A DNA stretch of 64,000 nt. Source: Stegostoma tigrinum (lineage: Eukaryota). The DNA lies in contig NC_081361.1 of NCBI RefSeq assembly GCF_030684315.1, positions 16,295,861-16,359,860 of the forward strand. The letters are read 5' to 3'. A program made the position numbers and the translations under genes. The notes below the pieces were generated by a model. It did no database searches. It was not told the origin of the DNA and saw only the letters and a list, made by a program, of their open reading frames with translations. Shown here piece by piece: positions 2,833 through 63,158 of this stretch. The first letter of the stretch is position 1. The number at the start of each line of letters is the position of its first letter.

Positions 2833-2983
2833 TCTATCAAGTCAGGACTGTTGAACAAAAGAGATTAGGTAAACCAGGCCTGTATTCTGAGATAATGGGA
2901 ACTGCAGATGCTGGAGATTCCAAGATAATAAAATGTGAGGCTGGATGAACACAGCAGGCCAAGCAGCATCTCAGGAGCACAAA

Positions 2984-3018
2984 AGCTGACGTTTCGGGCC
3001 TAGACCCTTCATCAGAGA
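2984..3018 (-). ncRNA. Minimal type-I hammerhead ribozyme motif in pLTR
   Basis: Reverse complement of CTGATGA-agggtctaggccc-GAAA-CGTC-agct. Confidence 0.75.
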
Positions 3019-3702
3019 GGGGGATGGGGGGAGGGAACTGGAATAAATAGGGAGAGAGGGGGAGGCGGACCGAAGATGGAGAGTAAAGAAGATAGGTGGA
3101 GAGGGTGTAGGTGGGGAGGTAGGGAGGGGATAGGTCAGTCCAGGGAAGACGGACAGGTCAAGGAGGTGGGATGAGGTTAGTAGGTAGCTGGGGGTGCGGC
3201 TTGGGGTGGGAGGAAGGGATGGGTGAGAGGAAGAACCGGTTCGGGAGGCAGAGACAGGTTGGACTGGTTTTGGGATGCAGTGGGTGGGGGGGAAGAGCTG
3301 GGCTGGTTGTGTGGTGCAGTGGGGGGAGGGGATGAACTGGGCTGGAAAATCCCCTTCCCCCACTGCATCCCTCAACCAGCCCAGTTCATCCCCTCCCCCC
3401 ACTGCACCACACAACCAGCCCAGCTCTTCCCCCCCACCCACTGCATCCCAAAACCAGTCCAACCTGTCTCTGCCTCCCGAACCGGTTCTTCCTCTCACCC
3501 ATCCCTTCCTCCCACCCCAAGCCGCACCCCCAGCTACCTACTAACCTCATCCCACCTCCTTGACCTGTCCGTCTTCCCTGGACTGACCTATCCCCTCCCT
3601 ACCTCCCCACCTACACCCTCTCCACCTATCTTCTTTACTCTCCATCTTCGGTCCGCCTCCCCCTCTCTCCCTATTTATTCCAGTTCCCTCCCCCCATCCC
3701 CC

Positions 3703-3737
3703 TCTCTGATGAAGGGTCTAGGCCCGAAACGTCAGCT
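3703..3737 (+). ncRNA. Minimal type-I hammerhead ribozyme motif in inverted pLTR
   Basis: CTGATGA 3706-3712, stem II gggt-ctag-gccc, GAAA 3726-3729, palindromic ACGT stem III, GTC triplet 3731-3733; stem I only about 2 bp. Confidence 0.75.
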
Positions 3738-3852
3738 TTTGTGCTCCTGAGATGCTGCTTGGCCTGCTGTGTTCATCCAGCCTCACATTTTATTATCCAG
3801 GCCTGTATTCTTTCCAGTTTTGAAGAATGAAAGGTGATCTCATTAAAGCTTC

Positions 3853-4552: not shown

Positions 4553-4681
4553 CTCTCTGATGAAGGCTCTAGGTCTGAAAAGTCAGCTTTTGTGCTCCTG
4601 AGATGCTGCTTGGTCAGCTGTGTTTATCCAGCTTCACACTTTGTTATCTTGTATTCTCCAGCATCTGCAGTTCCCATTATC
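4553..4681 (+). mobile_element. Mini-PLE (family A), HHR to 3' tail
   Basis: Starts ctctCTGATGA, ends cccattatc; TSD TTTGAGAAGAAA(A)GAG 4537-4552 / 4682-4696. Confidence 0.9.
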
Positions 4682-4839
4682 TTTGAGAAGAAAGAGGTTG
4701 GTCTGAGACAAGTAGTAATATTTTATCCCTGAGGTTTGGGAAGCTTTTGAATTCTCTGCCACAAAATGATATGGAGGATGTTTTGCAAATGTTTTAGATA
4801 GAGATCGATAGGTTAATAATTACCAATGGCATACAAGGC

Positions 4840-5385
4840 CATAAGACCATAAGACATAGGAGTGGAAGTAAGGCCATTTGGCCCATCAAGTCCACTCCGC
4901 CATTAAATCATGGCTGATGGGCATTTCAACTCCACTTCCCTGCACTCTCCCCGTAGCCCTTGATTCCTTCTGAGATCAAGAATTTGTCGATCTCTGCCTT
5001 GAAGGCATCCAACGTCCCCGTCTCCACTGCACTCCGTGGCAATGAGTTCCACAAGCCCACCACTCTCTGGCTGAAGAAATGTCGTCTCATTTCAGTTTTA
5101 AATTTACCCCCTCTAATTTTAAGGCTGTGCCCACAGGTCCTAGTCTCCCCGCCTAACGGAAACAACTTCCTAGCGTCCACCCCTTCTAAGCCATACATTA
5201 TCTTGTAAGTTTCTGTTAGATCTCCCCTCAACCTTCTAAACTCTAATGAGTACAATCCCAGGATCCTTAGCCGTTCATCATACGTTAAACCTACCATTCC
5301 AGGGATCATCCGTGTGAATCTCCGCTGGACACGCTCCAGGGCTAGTATGCCCTTCCTGCGATGTGGGGCCCAAAATTGGACACAG
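4840..5385 (-). mobile_element. Young 5'-truncated CR1 LINE with open ORF2 C-terminus
   Basis: ORF 4926-5309 MIPGMVGLTYDERLRILGLYSLEFRRLRGDL...FFSQRVVGLWNSLP; (cataagac)n tail. Confidence 0.92.
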
Positions 5386-6427: not shown

Positions 6428-6531
6428 ACCAAAACAAAGCTGCTGGAAAAGCTCAGCAGATCTGGCAGCATCTGTGGGGAGAAAACAGAGTTAATGTTTC
6501 AGGTCTGGTAACCCTTCCTCAGAACATTTCC
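6428..6531 (-). mobile_element. Mini-PLE (family C), tail-less, ending at HHR
   Basis: gctgctggaaaagctcagcag..gtttcaggtctggtaacccttcctcagaac; TSD TCAAAAT(G/A)GGAGGA 6414-6427 / 6532-6545. Confidence 0.8.
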
Positions 6532-17254: not shown

Positions 17255-17368
17255 CAACACAAACAGAAATTTTTGGAAAAGCTCAGCAGGTCTTGCAGCA
17301 TCTGTGGAGAGAAATTGAGTAAACAGAGTGATCTGAGGAAGGGTCACTCGACCTGAAACGCAAACTCC
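17255..17368. mobile_element. Mini-PLE (family C) with inverted HHR segment
   Basis: Minus-strand 3' end followed by plus-strand ctgaggaagggtcactcgacctgaaacg. Confidence 0.7.
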
Positions 17369-17435
17369 ATTCTGCCAAATACAAACTATCCCTGTAATAA
17401 CTAGGTTTCTATAACCCACCTCTATTTACCCCATG

Positions 17436-20192: not shown

Positions 20193-20574
20193 TGTAATAA
20201 GTGAACCTCATAGAATATGAGTGATAATGGGAACTGCAGATGCTGGAGAATCCAAGATAACAAAGTGTGAAGCTGGGTGAAAACAGCAGGCCAAGCAGCA
20301 TCTCAGGAGCACAAAAGCTTTTGTGCTCCTGAGATGCTGCTTGGCCTGCTGTGTTCATCCAGCTTCACACTTTCTCATAGAATATGAGTTTCTGTTTGGG
20401 GCTGTTAATCTGGTCCAATGAGATACCACAGGCTGACTGATATTAGGAGGAGTGTAGAGGTTCTGTTCACTTTGAGAGCTGGCTCTGGTGGGGCTGGTTG
20501 AGTGTTAAGGACTCTTCATGTGGAAATAAAAGATAATTTGTTGACAGGTTACCAGAATCTGTGAAGTTATTTCA
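20193..20574 (+). mobile_element. Short solo-LTR-like element, copy 2, interrupted by a mini-PLE
   Basis: TGTAAT...GTTATTTCA with ccaat and aataaa; similar to copies at 1790 and 26146. Confidence 0.65.
20223..20373 (-). mobile_element. Mini-PLE palindrome with no spacer
   Basis: TSD CTCATAGAATATGAGT 20207-20222 / 20374-20389; symmetry axis gcacaaaag|cttttgtgc at 20317/20318. Confidence 0.93.
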
Positions 20575-20692: not shown

Positions 20693-21124
20693 TAATAATA
20701 AAGTATGAAGCTGGATGAACACAGCAGGCCAAGCAGCATCTCAGGAGCACAAAAGCTGACTTTTCGGGCCTAGACCCTTCATCAGAGAGGGGGATGGGGT
20801 GAGGGTTCTGGAATAAATAGGGAGAGAGGGGGAGGCAGACCGAAGATGGAGAGAAAAGAAGATAGGTGGAGAGTAGAGTATAGGTGGGGAGGTAGGGAGG
20901 GGATAGGTCAGTCCAGGGAAGACGGACAGGTCAAGGAGGTGGGATGAGGTTAGTAGGTCGGAAATGGAGGTGCGGCTTGGGGCGGGAGGACGGGATGGAT
21001 GAGAGGAAGAACAGGTTAGGGAGGCAGAGACAGGCTGGGCTGGTTTTGGGATGCAGTGGGGGGAGCGGAAGAGCTGGGCTGGTTGTGTGGTGTAGTGGGG
21101 GGAGGGGACGAACTGGGCTGGTTT
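20693..21124 (-). mobile_element. PLE family A pLTR, tail-less
   Basis: Highly similar to 2924-3345; HHR at about 20757-20786. Confidence 0.9.
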
Positions 21125-22688: not shown

Positions 22689-22871
22689 AGAGATAATGGG
22701 AACTGCAGATCCTGGAGAATCTGAGATAACAAGGTATGGAGCTGGATGAACACAACAGACCAAGTAGCATCTTAGGAGCAGGAAAGCTGACGTTTCGCGC
22801 CTCGACCCTTCATCAGACTCTAGGCTGGAAACATCAGCTTTCCTGCTCCTAAGACGCTGCTTGGCCTGCTG
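22689..22871 (-). mobile_element. Mini-PLE hairpin
   Basis: TSD TATTACCTTTATT 22676-22688 / 22872-22884; inversion junction at the HHR (about 22817). Confidence 0.9.
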
Positions 22872-24002
22872 TATTACCTTTATTGTCACACTTGCATCAT
22901 TTGTGCACTATCATAGCTGTCGGTATCTTCCTGACCCGGATTCCTTTTGCTGTTTTTCATTTCAGTACGCTTGCCTTTGTTTGTTCTTGCTGTTATCAAT
23001 TTCTATTTATCTTAATCATATCATGGTTGCTACATTCTAGACATGACTCATCACTGCAATTACTTGCTTGACCCATTTCATTTTCTAAGAACCCAATCTG
23101 GCAACACCTCCTCTCTCAAACTGGGAAACAGGTCTGGCTCACTGTAGAAATTCTATGCCCCTAAACCACCGCCATAATTTTAACTCCAGTCTATCATCAG
23201 ATGATTACAGTCAAGCATTAATATGACCCTATTATTTCTGCATATTTAATCTGTAATATGTCTCCATATCGCTTCTTACATTTCCCATGTAATGTTCAGC
23301 AATCTATAATAAACTCCCAAAAGACTAACCATTCCCTCTTACGCCTCAACTCTGAGCAGATTCAGCATTTGCACAATTATACATGTAATCTTGACAGCCT
23401 TCTGCCATGTTTGAATTTTGATTCATATAACACCTTACTATTTCTAATCTTCACTTCCTCAATATGTTTATAAGCTAAAATGTTCAGCTGCTATGTCTCT
23501 GTTACAATATTATACAATACTATTCTTAGCAACCAAGGTTTCTAGATCTCTCAAATTACTCAGCTTACTATTTAATTTCTACTTATTACCTGCACTTATT
23601 TTTAATTCTTCCTATTACATTGATGTTTGCCCCTATTAATTTTTTTTAACATTCTGTATTTCTTGTGCAATACCTTCTTTTCCTTAGCTTTGTTTTCCTC
23701 CACTTCCTGTTATTGATTAAATTACCTTTTAGAAAAACACCAATTTTTGTTCTAGAGAAGACATTTGTCCTGCTTAGCTCTAATGAAGTCTATCCACTTC
23801 AAAACTCTTTGTTACAGGTCAACCCACTGACCCTGTGCATGAACTCTTTCCATCTTGCACTACCTCTTCAGGCGTATAACACCATAGGTAGTAAGTGCAG
23901 AAGTATGGTAATTCACCCATACTTTAAACTCCATTCCCTATGAAATAAAGGCCAGCATTTCATTCGCTTTCTCTATTACATGCTCAACATGAATGTTATG
24001 TT

Positions 24003-24179
24003 GACAAAGTGTGGAGCTGGATGAACACAGCAGGCCAAGCAGCACCTAAGGAGCTCAAAATGTGTCTAGGCCCGAAACGTCAGCTTTTGTGCTCTCAAGA
24101 TGCTGCCTGGCCTGGTGTGTTCATCCAGCTCCACACTTTGCTATCTTGGATTCTCCAGCATCTGCATTTCCCATTATCT
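24003..24179 (+). mobile_element. Mini-PLE hairpin
   Basis: Inverted arm 24003-24060, main arm from HHR stem II to tail; degenerate TSD atgaatg(t/c)t... Confidence 0.88.
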
Positions 24180-28660: not shown

Positions 28661-28786
28661 GGAGATAATGGGAACTGCAGATGCTGGAGAATCCAAGATA
28701 ATAAAGTGTGAAGCTGGATGAACACAGCAGGCCAAGCAACATCTCAGGAGCACAAAAGCTGACGTTTCGGGCCTAGAACCTTCATA
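28661..28786 (-). mobile_element. Mini-PLE (family A) ending inside the HHR core
   Basis: gagataatgggaac...gggcctagaaccttcat. Confidence 0.9.
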
Positions 28787-34085: not shown

Positions 34086-35261
34086 TGGGTCACTTTGAGG
34101 AGTGTACATCTGCCTTTTAAATAAAAAAGGCTTTTTGTTATGTTACCAGGCCAAACCCTTAGCTTTTGGTGCCAATAACTAGTCATTAAGATTACACGTA
34201 TAATTAAGAATGCGTCTGTTAGGAAGCTATGAATATACAATGAAGCACTTCCTAAAGTGCACATAAAATTCCTAGTAGGATTGGTTATCTGCTTTCTTGA
34301 AATGGTAGTTTTTTATGCACATCAAGGTCACAGTGATGAGGAATTTAACAGTTTTTCGCTCACTGGCCCCCTCTTTGCAACATAACGCTGCCAAAGACCT
34401 GACCTCACACTGCCAGTATGCTGACTTCACATTGTGCTTTATGGGTCAGGATGGTTAGGTGAACATTAGCAGCAATTGCACAGATGGTCTAATCTTTGTG
34501 ACAAAAGACTCCATGACTGCTTTGCACTTGTTATTGAATGCGATGATGGTTGAGGCAGGGGAAGGCGCCTACTGGAGATGCTTGGTTGGAAAAATGAAGC
34601 TGGGAATTATCATTGCTCTCCAGAAAGATCCTGGAGTAGTGGTTAGTTTAGATGTGGAAAATGAGGCCTCCTCATGCTTGATGTAGTAATGAACAGTTGA
34701 ACAAACCATGTACCATATTTTGATCATTCAAAGAGTTGGATCACTGGTCTCCTCTGTTTTAATGATTTGACACATCTGAAATATGGTTAATTCTTTACTG
34801 TTAGCTGTAGGGAACATAGGAAATGGTTAACTGTCACCCAGTGTAACATTAATAGAGGTGGATCTTCAATTCACTTTATTAAAATTGTTTTGTTGATCAT
34901 GTGTTTAAAAACTACTTTTAGTGAAACAACATTAATGTTTAAACGGCAAAGTTAAACAGATCAGTGATAGCAAATAGGTAGAAAACAAACAGCGAAGTGC
35001 AAACTATTTTATTTCTTAGCTGCCTATTTTCTAAAGGTAAACAGTGTGCTTGTGTAATGAATCACTGATTTCCATTCTATCTTTCTTCCTGTAATATAAT
35101 TCTTTCTTTTCATTCTGATTTGTTCCTCTTTTCATTTCACCTCTCTCTTAGCCCTTCTTCAATCCATAAATGAATCATTATTATATAGATTTTGAAATGC
35201 AGTGTTCATACCTAGTTCTGAACAACCATAATTTTATAACCTCAAACACTGAGGAACTGTA

Positions 35262-35491
35262 GATAACACAGTGTGGACCTGGAGGAACACAGCAAGCCAG
35301 GGAGCATCAGGGGAGCAGGAAAGCTGACGTTTCAGATAGGGACCCTTCTTCAATAATGGGGATTTCTGAAGAAGGGCCCTGGTCCAAGCTTTCCTGCTCC
35401 CCTGATGCTGCCTAGCCTGCTGTTTTCTTCTAGCTCCACAGTCACAGTGTGTTACCTCAGACTCCAGCATCAAAGGTTCTTACTATCACTG
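35262..35491 (+). mobile_element. Mini-PLE hairpin (older variant)
   Basis: TSD ACTGAGGAA(C/T)TGTA 35248-35261 / 35492-35505; both arms start at CTGAAGA. Confidence 0.88.
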
Positions 35492-36283: not shown

Positions 36284-36357
36284 AATCTCCAAACATGTGG
36301 CTAGTTATGCTCCCTTATGTTTGTAATAAATCTAGCAAGCATCCTACTTGTTTGTTA

Positions 36358-36573
36358 GAGAGAATAGGAACTGCAGATGCTGGAGAATCTGAGATAACAA
36401 GGTGGAGAGCTGGATGAACACAGCAGGCCAAACAGCATTAGAGCAGCAGGGAAGTTGATGTTTTAGCTCTAAACTCTTCTTCAGAAATGGGTCTAGACCC
36501 GAAACGTCAGGTTTCCTGCTCCTCTGATGCTGTTGGGTCTGCTGTGTTCATCCAGCTCCATACTTTGTTATTT
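36358..36573 (-). mobile_element. Mini-PLE hairpin
   Basis: TSD CTACTTGTTTGTTA 36344-36357 / 36574-36587; junction cttcttcagaaa|tgggtctagacccgaaacgtc. Confidence 0.9.
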
Positions 36574-40672: not shown

Positions 40673-40799
40673 AGATAATGGGAACTGCAGATGCTGGAGA
40701 ATCCAAGATAACAAAGTGTGGAGCTGGATGAACACAGCAGGCCAAGCAGCATCTTAGGAGCACAAAAGCTGACGTTTCGGGCCTAGACTCTTCATCAGA
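40673..40799 (-). mobile_element. Mini-PLE ending at the HHR, with junction filler
   Basis: TSD TACTCTGGCAGCAG 40659-40672 / 40824-40837. Confidence 0.9.
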
Positions 40800-47329: not shown

Positions 47330-49065
47330 GAACATGAGGTTGATGTTAGGCTTGCTGTTCCAGTAAAATAACACTCCTACAGGCTTAATCCTCTCAAAGC
47401 AGTGCAGATTGAGATGGAAGTGATGGCCTAAGAGTATATCATAGAGCTAAGTCAAAGTGTGATATTCACTGATTGTGTAGGTTTCCAAGTCTGATGATGT
47501 TCAGCAGTCTCGCATAGATTATTGGAAGGTCAACGCTGTGACAAAATCAGACTAATTCTCAAATCCAAGGCTGGAGGACTGTGTGGAAAAAGTAGTACAA
47601 GCGATTTGCATCACAAAGTTAGACTTACTTCATGGTTACCGGCAAGAGCCTTTGTCAGAGAGAGCGAAAGAAGTTTCTGCTTTTATAACCCCAAATGGGG
47701 TGTATCAAGATAAAGTAATGCCCTTTGGACTGAAAAACACACCAGCTACTTTTCAAAGATATAGAGATCCTGGTGTTGGATTGGAATGGACAAGGTCAGA
47801 AATCACATTGCAACAGGTAACAGTCCAACAGCTTCATTTGAAAACACAGCTTTTGGAGCCCTACAGAGATAGTGAGAACAGCCGATGCTGGATTCAGAGA
47901 CAAAACAGTGTGGAGCTGGAAGAACACAACAGGCCAGGTAGCACCAGAGGAACAGGAAAGTTAGCTTTTCGGGCTGGGACTCTTCTTCAGAAAATGAAGA
48001 AAAATTGTGAAAATGAAATTTCCTGTAGGGTCGCAAACTGAAATGCCAATTTTCGTGCTCCTCTGATGCTGCCTGGCCTGCTGTGTTCCTCCAGCTCCAC
48101 ACTGTGTTGTCTTTTTCAGAGCTTTACTCCTTCTTTCAAGGGCTTGTGAACAGAGTTGTGGCAGAATTGAGAAATTGTGCAGCCTACATAGATGACTTGG
48201 TGGTCTTTAGCCATTCGTGGAAAGGTCACATGGAGCATTTGGCAAAGCTCTACTCAAAACTACAGAAGGCAATGTTGATCATAAACTTGGCAGAAATAGA
48301 ATTCTCAAAGGCAGGAGTGGTGTTCTTAATGCACAACATTGGGCACTTGTCAGATGACATCAAGGAAAATGAAGACAAAGGCCATGAAGGAATTTCCAAG
48401 ACCATCCTCAAAGACTACACACTGTTTTCCCTGTAGCATTTTACAAACACTAAATTCAAACATCCTGCCTTCCAATCCTCAAGTATGCTATGCATCTATG
48501 CAACACCTCCCCACATAAGAAATTTTTAGGATTGAGCATATTCTGAAGGAAATTTGTACCAAACTTTCGTAGCGTGATGGCACCGTTGATGGATTTGTTA
48601 GAAAAGAACACCAAATTTCAATGAATAGAACAATGCCAGGAGGCATTTGAGAGCTTAAAAGCATTGTTAAGTGCTGCACCTGTTACAGCTAAGCCAAATT
48701 TCTTGAAACCCTCGAAAATCACGATTGCGTAAGCGATATAAATGTTGGAAGTATGTTATCACAGGAGGGTAAGTGAGAAATTGAAAGGCCAATCGATTAG
48801 ATTTCAGAAAAATCTCAATATCCACCAAAAACAATGTTCAACCACTGAAAAAGAGTTATTGAGTTTGGTAATGGCCTTATAACATTTTAATATTTACTTT
48901 GCAAACAATGAGTCGGAGAAAGTTATGTATACCAATCAAATTGCTTTGACATTTCTGGAAAGATTTAAGGACAAGAACAGCATATTATTTCATTGGAGTC
49001 GAATGACACAAGCACTTAATTTATAGACTGAACATGTTGTGGATTATGAAAACGTTATTGCTTTA
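47330..49065 (+). pseudogene. pol: Reverse transcriptase / RNase H remnant
   Basis: ITKLDLLHGYRQ..SAFITPNGVYQDKVMPFGLKNTPATFQ; AAYIDDLVVFS; STTEKELLSLV. Confidence 0.88.
47762..48133 (-). mobile_element. PLE family B 3' end containing a nested family A mini-PLE (47865-48111)
   Basis: agaaatcacattgcaacaggtaacagtccaacagc..gaaaacacagctttt matches 53205-53270; RT frame interrupted at FQ(R)...FQG. Confidence 0.8.
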
Positions 49066-53199: not shown

Positions 53200-54250
53200 T
53201 TTATTCAGAAGTCAAATGACACTAGGTTACAGTCAACAAGTTTATTTGAAAACACACGAGCTTTCTTAGCTCAGCTCCTTTGTCAACTGCAGTGAAAGAG
53301 GAGAGCACACAGACACATGGTTTATCGTCAGAGAGATCAAGTGCAGAGAGATCAAAAGATCATACAACTGGTGTGAGTGGGGTGTCAGATAATAAACCTC
53401 AAGAGTGATAGATGGCGATTAAGTGTTTATAAAATCAATGTCAGTGCTGTGCTGTCAGACAGTCAGGCAGAGCCATGGGATTATACAAAAGGTGACATCT
53501 CAGGTCAGACACTGAATTGTAGGTGTGAGGCCTTGTTTAAAATCTGTCTCAGAGTTTTAACCTGGAACCAGACTTGTTTTATTCCAAGAATAGCATTTAT
53601 GAGACACCACACTGATTGACTGTGAATACAATTTGTGTGCTTTTTGAACAAAATAGAATATATCTACAGATAATCAAATATCTTGGATGAAATGATTCAC
53701 CCCATAAATTTGTGTGTGTATGAGAGAGAGAGAGAGACAGTGTGTTGAGAGAGAATCTCTGAGAGTGAGTGTATNNNNNNNNNNNNNNNNNNNNNNNNNN
53801 NNNNNNNNNNNNNNNNNNNNNNNNNNNNNNNNNNNNNNNNNNNNNNNNNNNNNNNNNNNNNNNNNNNNNNNNNNNNNNNNNNNNNNNNNNNNNNNNNNNN
53901 NNNNNNNNNNNNNNAGTGTGAGAGCATACATATGTGAGTGTACGTGTGTGTGTGAGAGAACGTAATAAGTAATTCAAAACAGTACCAACAAATAAGGTAA
54001 AGAAATCATAAGAATTTATTGAGGTGATGCTGTCAAAACAAAACAGGAAAGAAGATTTTACAGATACAAGACTTTGTGGTGGGGTCACCATGAATTGCAG
54101 CATGGACTCAAGATAATGGTTGGGGCCATCTTCATAAGTACTGAACTTGGCTATCAGCCTCTGCTTGGCAATTCTGAGTTGATGTATATCTCAGAAGATG
54201 CCTTGGAGGACATTTACTGGAAGATAAGAGGCGAAATGTCCTTGATTGCT
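53200..54250 (-). mobile_element. PLE family B 3' part, spans an assembly gap
   Basis: GIY-YIG C-terminal remnant on the minus strand at about 54100-54250 (AKQRLIAKFSTYEDGPN); degenerate HHR at about 53258-53287. Confidence 0.75.
53775..53914. other. Assembly gap (140 N) within GA/GT microsatellite-rich sequence
   Basis: Directly visible. Confidence 0.99.
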
Positions 54251-54254
54251 AAAT

Positions 54255-54800
54255 AAAAATGAAAAGAACTGCTGATGCTGTAAACCAGGAACAAAAACAG
54301 AAGTTGCTGGAGAAGCTCAACAGGCCTGGCAGCATTTGTGAAGAGGAAATCAGAGTTAATGTTTCGGGTTCAGCGACTCTTCCTCAGTTCTGACTCTTCT
54401 TCAGTGCGGCATCTCATAAATTCCTGTTTTTGGATAAAACAAGCCTAATTCCAGTTTTGAGGGAGGGTCACCGGGCATATCCCACGTAATTGGGGCCCAT
54501 GCAGGTACCCATGGCCAGCCCTCCTCCCTGCAAAAAGTAAGAGAAGTTGAAAGAAAAGTTATTGAGGGCGAGGACAAGCTCATCCAAGCAGAGGACGGTG
54601 ATGGTGGGTGAGGACAGTTCAGGCTTTTCCTCCAGGAAGAGGTGGAAAGCCTTAAGACCATCTTGGTGAAGGATCAGCGTGCAAAGGGATTGCAAGTCCA
54701 TGGTACAGAAGAGGTGGCTGGAGCCTGCAAACTGGAAATTTTGAAACTGGCTTTAAGGATCAGAGGAACAGGACCAGGGGAGAGAAAATCAAGTCAAAAC
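54255..54800 (-). mobile_element. Rearranged PLE (family C): 3' end, short inverted piece, RT fragment
   Basis: ELVLALNNFSFNFSYFLQGGGLAMGTCMGPNY is a PLE RT motif. Confidence 0.82.
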
Positions 54801-56689: not shown

Positions 56690-57420
56690 ACTATAAGAAA
56701 GCTGTTGTGAAACTTGAAAGGGTTCAGAAAAGATTTTCAAGGATGTTAGATAACAAGGTGTAGAGTTGGATGAACACAGCAGGCCAAGCAGCATCAGAGG
56801 AGCAGGAAGGCTGACGTTTCAGACCTAGAACCTTCTGCCCAAAATGTCAGCCTTCCTGCTCCTCTGATTCTGCTTGGCCTGCTGTGTTCATCCAGCTCTA
56901 CACCTTCTTATCTCAGTTTCTCCAGCATCTGCAGTTCCTACTATCTCTTTACAAGGATGTTACCAGGGTTGGTGGGCTTGAGTAATGGAGAGAGGCTGAA
57001 TAGGCTTGGGCTATTTTCCCTGGAGCATTGGAGGCTGATGGGTGGCCTTAAAGAGGTCTATAAATCATGAGGGGCATGGACAGGGTGAATAGCCATGGTC
57101 TTTTCCCCAGGATAGAGGAGTCCAAAAGTAGAGGGCATAGGTTTAAGGTGACAAGGGCAAGATTTAAAAGGGACCTATCGTGCAACTTTTTCACACAAAG
57201 GGCAGTAATGTATGGAATGAGCTGCCAGAGAAGGTGGTGGAGGCTGTGCAATTACAACATTTAAAAAGCATCTGGATTGGTATATGAATAGGAAGGGTTT
57301 GGAGGGATATGGGCCAAATGCTGGTAAATGGAACTAGATTGATTTCGAATGTCTGGTCAGAACGGGCAGGTTAGACTGAAGTGTTTGATTCTGTGCTGTA
57401 CATCTCTATGAGTCTAAAAT
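56690..57420 (+). mobile_element. CR1 3' end interrupted by a mini-PLE
   Basis: KLERVQKRF; MRGMDRVNSHGLFPRIEESKSRGHRFKV. Confidence 0.88.
56749..56947 (+). mobile_element. Mini-PLE hairpin
   Basis: TSD TTT(T/A)CAAGGATGTTA 56734-56748 / 56948-56962; junction within HHR stem II. Confidence 0.9.
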
Positions 57421-61716: not shown

Positions 61717-63158
61717 AGAGATAATGGGGACTGCAGATGCTGGAGATTCCAAGATAATAAAATGTGGGGCTGGATGAACACAGCAGGCCAAGCAGCATCT
61801 CAGGAGCACAAAAGCTGACGTTTCGGGCCTAGACCCTTCATCAGAGAGGGGGATGGGGGGAGGGAACTGGAATAAATAGGGAGAGAGGGGGAGGCGGACC
61901 GAAGATGGAGAGTAAAGAAGATAGGTGGAGAGGGTGTAGGTGGGGAGGTAGGGAGGGGATAGGTCAGTCCAGGGAAGACGGACAGGTCAAGGAGGTGGGA
62001 TGAGGTTAGTAGGTAGCTGGGGGTGCGGCTTGGGGTGGGAGGAAGGGATGGGTGAGAGGAAGAACCGATTAGGGAGGCAGAGACAGGTTGGACTGGTTTT
62101 GGGATGCAGTGGGTGGGGGGGAAGAGCTGGGCTGGTTGTGTGGTGCAGTGGGGGGAGGGGATGAACTGGGCTGGTTTAGGGATGCGGTAGGGGAAGGGGA
62201 GATTTTGAAACTGGTGAAGTCCACATTGATACCATATGGCTGCAGGGTTCCCAGGCGGAATATAAGTTGCTGTTCCTGCAACCTTCGGGTGGCATCATTG
62301 TGGCAGTGCAGGAGGCCCATGATGGACATGTCATCAAGAGAATGGGAGGGGGAGTGGAAATGGTTTGCGACTGGGAGGTGATGTTGTTTGTTACGAACTG
62401 AGCGGAGGTGTTCTGCAAAGCGGTCCCCAAGCCTCCGCTTGGTTTCCCCAATGTAGAGGAAGCCGCACCGGGTACCGTGGATGCAGTATACCACATTGGC
62501 AGATGTGCAGGTGAACCTCTGCTTAATGTGGAATGTCATCTTGGGGCCTGGGATGGGGGTGAGGGAGGAGGTGTGGGGACAAGTGTAGCATTTCCTGCGG
62601 TTGCAGGGGAAGGTGCCGGGTATGGTGGGGTTGGAGGGCAGTGTGGAGCGAACAAGGGAGTCACGGAGAGAGTGGTCTCTCCGGAAAGCAGACAGGGGAG
62701 GGGATGGAAAAATGTCTTGGGTGGTGGGGTCGGATTGTAAATGGCAGAAGTGTCGGAGGATGATGCGTTGTATCCGGAGGTTGGTAGGGTGGTGTGTGAG
62801 AACGAGGGGGATCCTCTTGGGGCGGTTGTGGCGGGGGCGGGGTGTGAGGGATGTGTCGCGGGAGATGCGGGAGACGCGGTCAAGGGCATTCTCAATCACC
62901 GTGGGGGGAAAGTTGCGGTCCTTAAAGAGGACTTCCCTGGACTGACCTATCCCCTCCCTACCTCCCCACCTACACCCTCTCCACCTATCTTCTTTACTCT
63001 CCATCTTCGGTCCGCCTCCCCCTCTCTCCCTATTTATTCCAGTCCCCTCCCCCCATCCCCCTCTCTGATGAAGGGTCTAGGCCTGAAACGTCAGCTTTTG
63101 TGCTCCTGAGATGCTGCTTGGCCTGCTGTGTTCATCCAGCCCCACATTTTATTATCTT
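61717..63158 (-). mobile_element. Young Neptune-type Penelope-like element, 5'-truncated, with inverted pLTR
   Basis: TSD ATCATCTTCCTTTGT 61699-61713 / 63159-63173; inverted arms 61751-61977 and 62932-63158; HHR on both arms. Confidence 0.95.
62069..62930 (-). CDS. PLE ORF C-terminal part: RT thumb/linker, Cys motif, GIY-YIG endonuclease (no native start)
   Basis: Uninterrupted frame: CNRRKCYTC; NVVYCIHGTRCGFLYIGETKRRLGDRFAEH; VANHF; EQQLIFRLGTLQPYGIN. Confidence 0.92.

Follow-up and report, generated by a model that had tools for sequence, protein, structure and literature searches.

The head-to-head insertion at 20207..20389 of the window (the whole 64-kb stretch of DNA that was analysed) folds back on itself exactly where a minimal hammerhead ribozyme of its element family is predicted to cut. 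Our explanation is that both arms end there since a ribozyme-cut RNA served as the template and both nicked target strands primed cDNA on it; as a whole, we see the chances for and against it as evenly balanced. The cut-end step, in which the arm ends correspond to an RNA 5′-OH made by the ribozyme, appears highly probable from the genomic junctions, and twin priming at this insertion, once such an end is granted, is moderately favored.

The insertion is bounded by identical 16-bp target site duplications (TSDs) at 20207..20222 and 20374..20389; TSDs of 14-16 bp were found in 30 of 37 young one-tail head-to-head copies. The full left arm including its tail spans 20223-20319. The tail (20223..20255, minus strand) is 33 nt long, occurs on this arm only and corresponds to the stretch between two inferred reverse-transcription start sites, as starts in 100 young arms cluster at reference positions 1-4 and 30-44. 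It is followed by the pLTR sequence between the inner start motif and the predicted hammerhead cut (20256..20319, minus strand), with the minus strand in RNA sense and the plus strand representing the cDNA. The right arm (20316..20373, plus strand) is a tail-less inverted pLTR piece starting ~6 nt inside the usual inner start. AGCT at 20316..20319 is common to both arms and is the axis of the palindrome (20317|20318, spacer 0); the 3′ product of the predicted cleavage would begin with these four bases. Base pairing between the arms extends over 56 bp (20262-20317 with 20318-20373), and the tail with a few further bases (20223-20261) is unpaired, being present in the left arm only. There are two mismatches, at 20277 and 20282, with both odd bases in the left arm; because this pair of bases was present in 1 of ~460 scored family copies, they are likely later mutations. 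The predicted fold of the palindrome is far from chance (z = -16.6). On re-reading the window we recovered every element of this palindromic insertion reported in the first-pass annotation: the 16-bp TSD, the zero-spacer AGCT axis and the one-arm tail. The duplicated target at 20207-20221 is itself a small hairpin with 6-bp arms and a 3-nt loop, which may be chance. A separate neighbouring copy (20695..21124, minus strand, core near 20758-20785) reads through the hammerhead and was used as a comparator.

The arms appear to be pLTR pieces of an endonuclease-positive (EN+) Penelope-like element (PLE) of the Neptune type. A long copy elsewhere in the genome (L093) contains a 516-aa frame with a YIDD reverse transcriptase (RT) followed by a GIY-YIG-type and a His-containing stretch, hence an RT with a C-terminal GIY-YIG in one ORF as in EN+ PLEs, with Pfam scores of 20.1 bits for RVT_1 and 17.3 bits for GIY-YIG that are both under the curated cut-offs. 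The linker between its RT and endonuclease reads C-x4-C-x2-C, in agreement with the CX2-5CxxC motif of Neptune, which is common to Nematis, too (PMC8557442); this Cys linker points to the Neptune clade. We also found the EN+ PLE anatomy as defined in PMC8557442, consisting of a pLTR with a hammerhead, an optional tail of 30-40 nt, partial tandems and an inverted 5′-truncated copy. An ORF fragment of the same family at 62072..63076 (minus strand) gave a weak GIY-YIG match (E 0.006, under the Pfam cut-off), and no full-length ORF was recovered among the copies examined. The window contains eight more head-to-head insertions from this family or its older relatives (2889-3797, 22692-22875, 24006-24179, 35261-35440, 36357-36571, 47868-48113, 56748-56948 and 61717-63158), as well as a run of 140 N at 53775-53914.

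On the RNA strand of intact copies, AGCT directly follows the GUC of a minimal hammerhead, so that these copies read GAAACGTC^AGCT on the opposite strand of the window (e.g., core at 3015, minus strand). The intact minimal core used for comparison lies at 2988..3015 (minus strand) with the predicted cut between 2988 and 2987; the insertion at 20207..20389 itself lacks an intact core. The features of minimal type-I PLE hammerheads are present, namely the CUGANGA, GAAA and UH core, an extra base (A) before G10.1-C11.1 and a palindromic helix III. In 64 of the 92 young cores, helix I consists of 2 bp (CU/AG), shorter than the 4-5 bp of this type and equal to that of the D. virilis hammerhead variant (PMC4209133). 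The earlier remark that stem I looks too short to work can be refined, as helix III (ACGU, loopless) is equally minimal. The lowest-energy predicted fold is an inactive hairpin, CUGAUG/CGUCAG, with its base two nucleotides away from the cut. Rfam hammerhead models gave no gathering-score match in the 64-kb window and were absent among the 109 matches up to E 10 in 2900-3850. An AUG inside the hammerhead core (window 2975-3013, minus strand) opens a 13-codon frame; in PAc (Poseidon, Anolis), the main ORF starts at the corresponding AUG within the ribozyme (PMC11167929).

According to the proposed mechanism, the GIY-YIG endonuclease would nick the two target strands 16 nt apart, one 3′ end would prime at the outer start, yielding the tail, and the other at the inner start. 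Both cDNAs would run off the 5′-OH end of the RNA and finish in AGCT, and these self-complementary ends would anneal and then be filled in. In some insertions the RT would re-engage the inner start and add 68-bp units, each ending at the cut.

Priming by both target strands at two start sites on the RNA is consistent with most head-to-head insertions. In 46 unselected head-to-head insertions, exactly one tail was found in 44 and two in none. Where one arm was longer by at least 10 nt, this was the tail-less arm in 20 of the 44 one-tail insertions and the tail arm in 7. A tail-less arm that much longer cannot be a copy of the tail arm, which is impossible to reconcile, for these 20, with an alternative that starts from the same ribozyme-cut end and lets a single cDNA fold back at AGCT and be copied onto itself (snap-back). 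The short arms of symmetric loci start at reference 33-40 in 24 of 35 cases, where direct tail-less insertions and jumps also begin, which again speaks against snap-back, and in L150 and L179 the two arms cannot be mutual copies. Moreover, a zero-loop hairpin formed from a 4-base end is sterically poor. Snap-back does occur, as is evident from L180, a mirror copy whose right arm repeats the left, including an unusual junction that occurs twice, as well as one private base in unit 2. Across 29 symmetric loci, arms show 0.90 differences per 56 bases within a locus vs 2.52 between loci, a similarity that counts for snap-back and is compatible with twin priming alike. Asymmetric fold-backs from AGCT onto a nearby AGC are frequent, and the insertion at 20207..20389, like L180, starts off the usual inner start; both observations favor snap-back, as does the description of such a junction class for R2 (PMC11331408). 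For the insertion studied here we regard it as possible but rather doubtful. The earlier proposal of run-off at the hammerhead cut followed by snap-back is hence retained in its first part, to which the jumps and repeat stops described below testify, and given up as a general route in its second, owing to the 20 of 44 insertions with a longer tail-less arm.

Returning to twin priming on a cut RNA, we mapped where arms end around the predicted cut. Hand tallies were taken on place-ordered listings, in which rows from the same array cannot count as independent. Among the first 100 of 9,640 matches listed (ends within 17 nt; 3 rows dropped as intact or insertions), 36 ended precisely at the cut, i.e., after 7 matched bases, and 2 each at positions -2, -1 and +1. 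In full, 0 to 8 matched bases were seen in 20, 7, 7, 5, 2, 2, 2, 36 and 2 rows, and 9 to 16 in 0, 5, 0, 4, 0, 0, 5 and 0 rows. The 36 at-cut rows comprised 19 symmetric ones (11 loci) and 17 others. Secondary classes were formed by the 20 listed rows whose ends lie immediately before the U run, at 7 nt within the cut product, and the 5 ending three bases past the cut. We picked 20 loci from this listing for direct ends, of which L106 ended cleanly at the cut, L109 at 7-8, L107 at 5-7 and L110 at 6, the others having earlier ends or no readable duplication. Ends at the cut make up ~3% of arms (3 of 100 young arms from random 10-kb stretches), and 82 of the 85 unselected young arms reaching the cut in these stretches read through it.

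Head-to-tail joins onto the inner start site (jumps) are stronger evidence than palindromes because they need no palindrome. The search yielded 200 rows, and in the first 100 listed, tallied by hand, 77 jumps ended exactly at the cut (42 of 62 loci), 8 at +1/+2 (5 loci), 1 at -1 and 14 elsewhere, with 0 of 86 rows ending two bases short of it. The final T was not derivable from the partner in 20 of the 77 at-cut rows. The jumps originate in 93 of the 100 listed rows from one young subfamily, which is not the subfamily of the 20207..20389 copy. They build arrays with a unit of 68 bp, from start site to cut, with up to 9.4 copies within one TSD (L178). When the unit following an at-cut jump reached the cut, it stopped there again in 52 of 54 instances (28 loci), and in 16 of 17 where loci had been selected for reasons other than arrays; 16 additional units following at-cut jumps ended before the cut. 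Repeat stops at this rate, vs 82 of 85 arms reading through, argue that the template itself ended at the cut. A physical 5′ end of the RNA at this position, made by the ribozyme and due neither to a pause nor to later deletion, is likely.

The junctions vary inside single arrays (L141, L146, L179, L182, L184), and these arrays are therefore not later DNA duplications; in some other cases arrays may have grown partly in that way, as units 2-3 of L151 share private bases. The copying enzyme likely re-reads the cut RNA repeatedly, up to ten times in a row, with one RNA presumably re-used across units. We also considered, and rejected, a rolling-circle origin of the arrays from a circular RNA, as joins vary within arrays and the units lack the core. 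In L133 (1400-1800) and L137 (1200-1600), units end before the cut and shorten along the array, as if one RNA had been reused while it was trimmed from its 5′ end. Four loci (L188, L189, L190 and L193, near 4700-5300) hold tandem arrays of ~100-110 bp with the whole hammerhead core in every unit; they fit the definition of retrozymes, which suggests retrozyme birth by RT re-initiation. A comprehensive model, as likely to prove wrong as right, would have the hammerhead cut in vivo inside the retrotransposon particle and thereby bound a short template for repeat addition by the Penelope RT (up to 9 re-initiations), with a protein dimer priming both strands at the two starts and with reiteration on uncut RNA giving hammerhead-bearing arrays as a route to retrozymes.

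The end at the cut could also have been produced without the ribozyme, by pausing or drop-off of the RT at the base of the inactive hairpin or by a host nuclease. The base of the predicted hairpin two bases from the cut favors this possibility, and so do AG|CT joins found at the 5′ edge of the hammerhead, where the element has no AGCT. Owing to these joins the palindrome count alone is indecisive and, together with the position of the hairpin base, the palindrome alone could represent a stop two bases short with added bases. The jumps end at the cut and not at the hairpin base, since none of the 86 rows is two bases short, and a chance pause passed by 96% of RTs cannot yield 52 of 54 repeat stops, an argument that does not apply to a host nuclease cutting after GUC.

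A further control came from the main arm-end hot spot, which is not at the cut but lies 1-8 nt past the 5′ edge of the hammerhead, often with one C added. Among 100 young arm ends, 39 lay at reference 122-140 and 1 at 141-200; window copies with such ends are 4553-4681, 40674-40799 and 28664-28785. All 62 hot-spot rows were tallied by hand and 20 set aside as ambiguous or as belonging to other subfamilies. The added C was present in 31 of the 42 informative rows, from which we infer a capped end. This hot spot is likely a capped transcription start within a pyrimidine run, presumably resembling a TCT initiator, and would place the capped start ~30 nt upstream of the cut. At the cut site, the C-then-T pattern was found in 0 of 77 rows (Fisher p ~1e-9 on rows, with array rows not independent). 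Ribozyme cleavage would be expected to leave an uncapped end at the predicted scissile bond. The jump ends (0 of 86), together with this control, led us to reject a blunt fold-back located two bases before the cut.

Other hammerhead families were compared as well. Family B (L041 127-356, L088, L050; helix I of 3 bp), whose hammerhead has no palindrome at the cut, showed no sharp peak: among the first 100 of 358 rows listed, 5 clear and 2-3 ambiguous ends fell at the cut, whereas each of the three positions before it had 4-8 and the position just after it 4. In family C (L059, L091 and window 6431-6525, 17264-17371 and 54289-54403; helix I of ~4 bp), the jump search gave 14 rows. The paired bases of helix I differ among the hammerhead families. 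The lack of a sharp peak in family B, which also speaks for a pause or a nuclease, counts against the ribozyme-cut end, as do the small share of arms (~3%), the 2-bp helix I, the inactive default hairpin, the lack of an Rfam match, the origin of almost all jumps in one subfamily and, for PAc, the absence of RNA reads ending at the cut (PMC11167929). Weighing both sides, we consider an end made by pausing or a host nuclease improbable and the ribozyme-made end the better account.

Fold-back junctions were counted in the 3.2-Gb genome by an exact 18-mer junction pattern. The symmetric AGCT junction occurred 791 times (reversed-pattern control, 0), vs 281 at GGCC in stem II, 80 at ACGT and 26 at an upstream GGCC, with the stem II GGCC and ACGT controls counted with CpG decay allowed, which favors the controls; CTAG was the axis in about 2 of 50 among the matches listed (of 2,697). 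The comparison with neighbouring palindromic 4-mers, suggested in the first-pass annotation, came out in favor of AGCT. Set against 175,952 intact 18-mers, this amounts to a palindrome frequency of 0.45%, so that the majority of cDNAs pass the ribozyme. In L075, near 5000 (G000:C1:68047495), the AGCT end is stuttered threefold, by 7 bases, at a head-to-head junction. The junction counts bear on the alternative put forward in the first-pass annotation, a longer head-to-head insertion whose middle was later deleted between two AGCT copies. Microhomology shapes many junctions of the family, as this would require, but ACGT, only five bases away, and the upstream GGCC reached 80 and 26 vs 791, many symmetric loci are 99-100% identical to the young reference, and a deletion could produce neither head-to-tail units nor the direct ends located at the cut (L106, L109); it is disfavored and very unlikely. 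Self-priming on an antisense transcript, proposed in PMC3846280 for palindromic junctions of Penelope, matches the head-to-head geometry and the palindromic junctions but gives no reason for ends at a sense-strand ribozyme cut or for re-initiation at sense-template start sites, and is the least likely of all.

The element and the insertion are of a known kind, and the mechanistic record they carry is likely undescribed. In the PLE literature covered, in mostly open texts including the available parts of PMC3846280, PMC6765202, PMC8557442, PMC8782182, PMC11167929 and bioRxiv 10.64898/2026.07.22.740005, there was no report of insertion ends mapping to a hammerhead cut, of PLE twin priming or of reiterated start-to-cut units. 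The ~176,000 copies constitute a deep record of RT end points with a single-base peak on the predicted cut, likely a genomic record that weak-looking minimal hammerheads cut in the germ line. This addresses the question of whether minimal hammerheads of animal PLEs cut in vivo (PMC4209133, PMC8557442, PMC11167929), offers a testable account of how the typical one-tail head-to-head insertions of PLEs arise and reveals an apparent case of repeat addition by RTs from a telomerase-related clade. Each of these points is testable in the existing purified-protein system and in other genomes.

EN+ PLEs are already known to form inverted 5′-truncated copies that carry one tail and have palindromic junctions (PMC8557442, PMC3846280). 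With those of the Neptune clade, our element shares the pLTR hammerhead, the 30-40 nt tail at one end, the head-to-head copy, the palindromic junction and an RT with a C-terminal GIY-YIG and Cys linker. In the accessible text of these two papers the junctions are not linked to the ribozyme cut, and the function of the hammerhead is called unclear or antisense self-priming is invoked. In vitro, the PAc protein nicks and extends both strands, with two sites of initiation, and the PAc hammerhead requires protein to cut; cleavage was dispensable in vitro and RNA reads ending at the cut were not found (PMC11167929, available text). Two RT starts defining the tail and an AUG inside the ribozyme are shared with PAc, whereas here the cut forms the end of ~3% of genomic arms and of most jumps, and reiteration is not reported in the available text on PAc.

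Minimal type-I PLE hammerheads have low activity in vitro, and their authors state that there is no in vivo evidence (PMC4209133). The core, the extra A before stem II, G10.1-C11.1 and the palindromic helix III are common to these metazoan hammerheads and ours, which in contrast to them has a probable in vivo footprint, judged from genomic ends. The closest precedent for the cut-site trace is R2 with its HDV-like ribozymes, in which cut sites correlate with 5′ junction types (PMC3774820, PMC11331408). In both systems the cut site is marked in genomic 5′ junctions, with snap-back and extra-template classes. The ribozyme and the RT are different, however, and the cut of R2 provides the normal 5′ end, whereas here it is a minority end that feeds palindromes and arrays.

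Short tandem repeats derived from PLE pLTRs are shared with the non-LTR retrozymes (bioRxiv 10.64898/2026.07.22.740005). Retrozymes are cut-to-cut monomers of circles, unlike the cut-ended 68-bp units, which lack the core and have variable joins. A complete hammerhead in every tandem unit, as in non-LTR retrozymes, is found neither in 20207..20389 nor in the cut-ended arrays. In L1 twin priming, two target ends likewise prime on one element RNA; here, both cDNAs cover the same stretch. The likeness to telomerase repeat addition, and perhaps to DRT10, is the repeated copying of a bounded stretch of template, in our case 68 bp long and with jittery joins.
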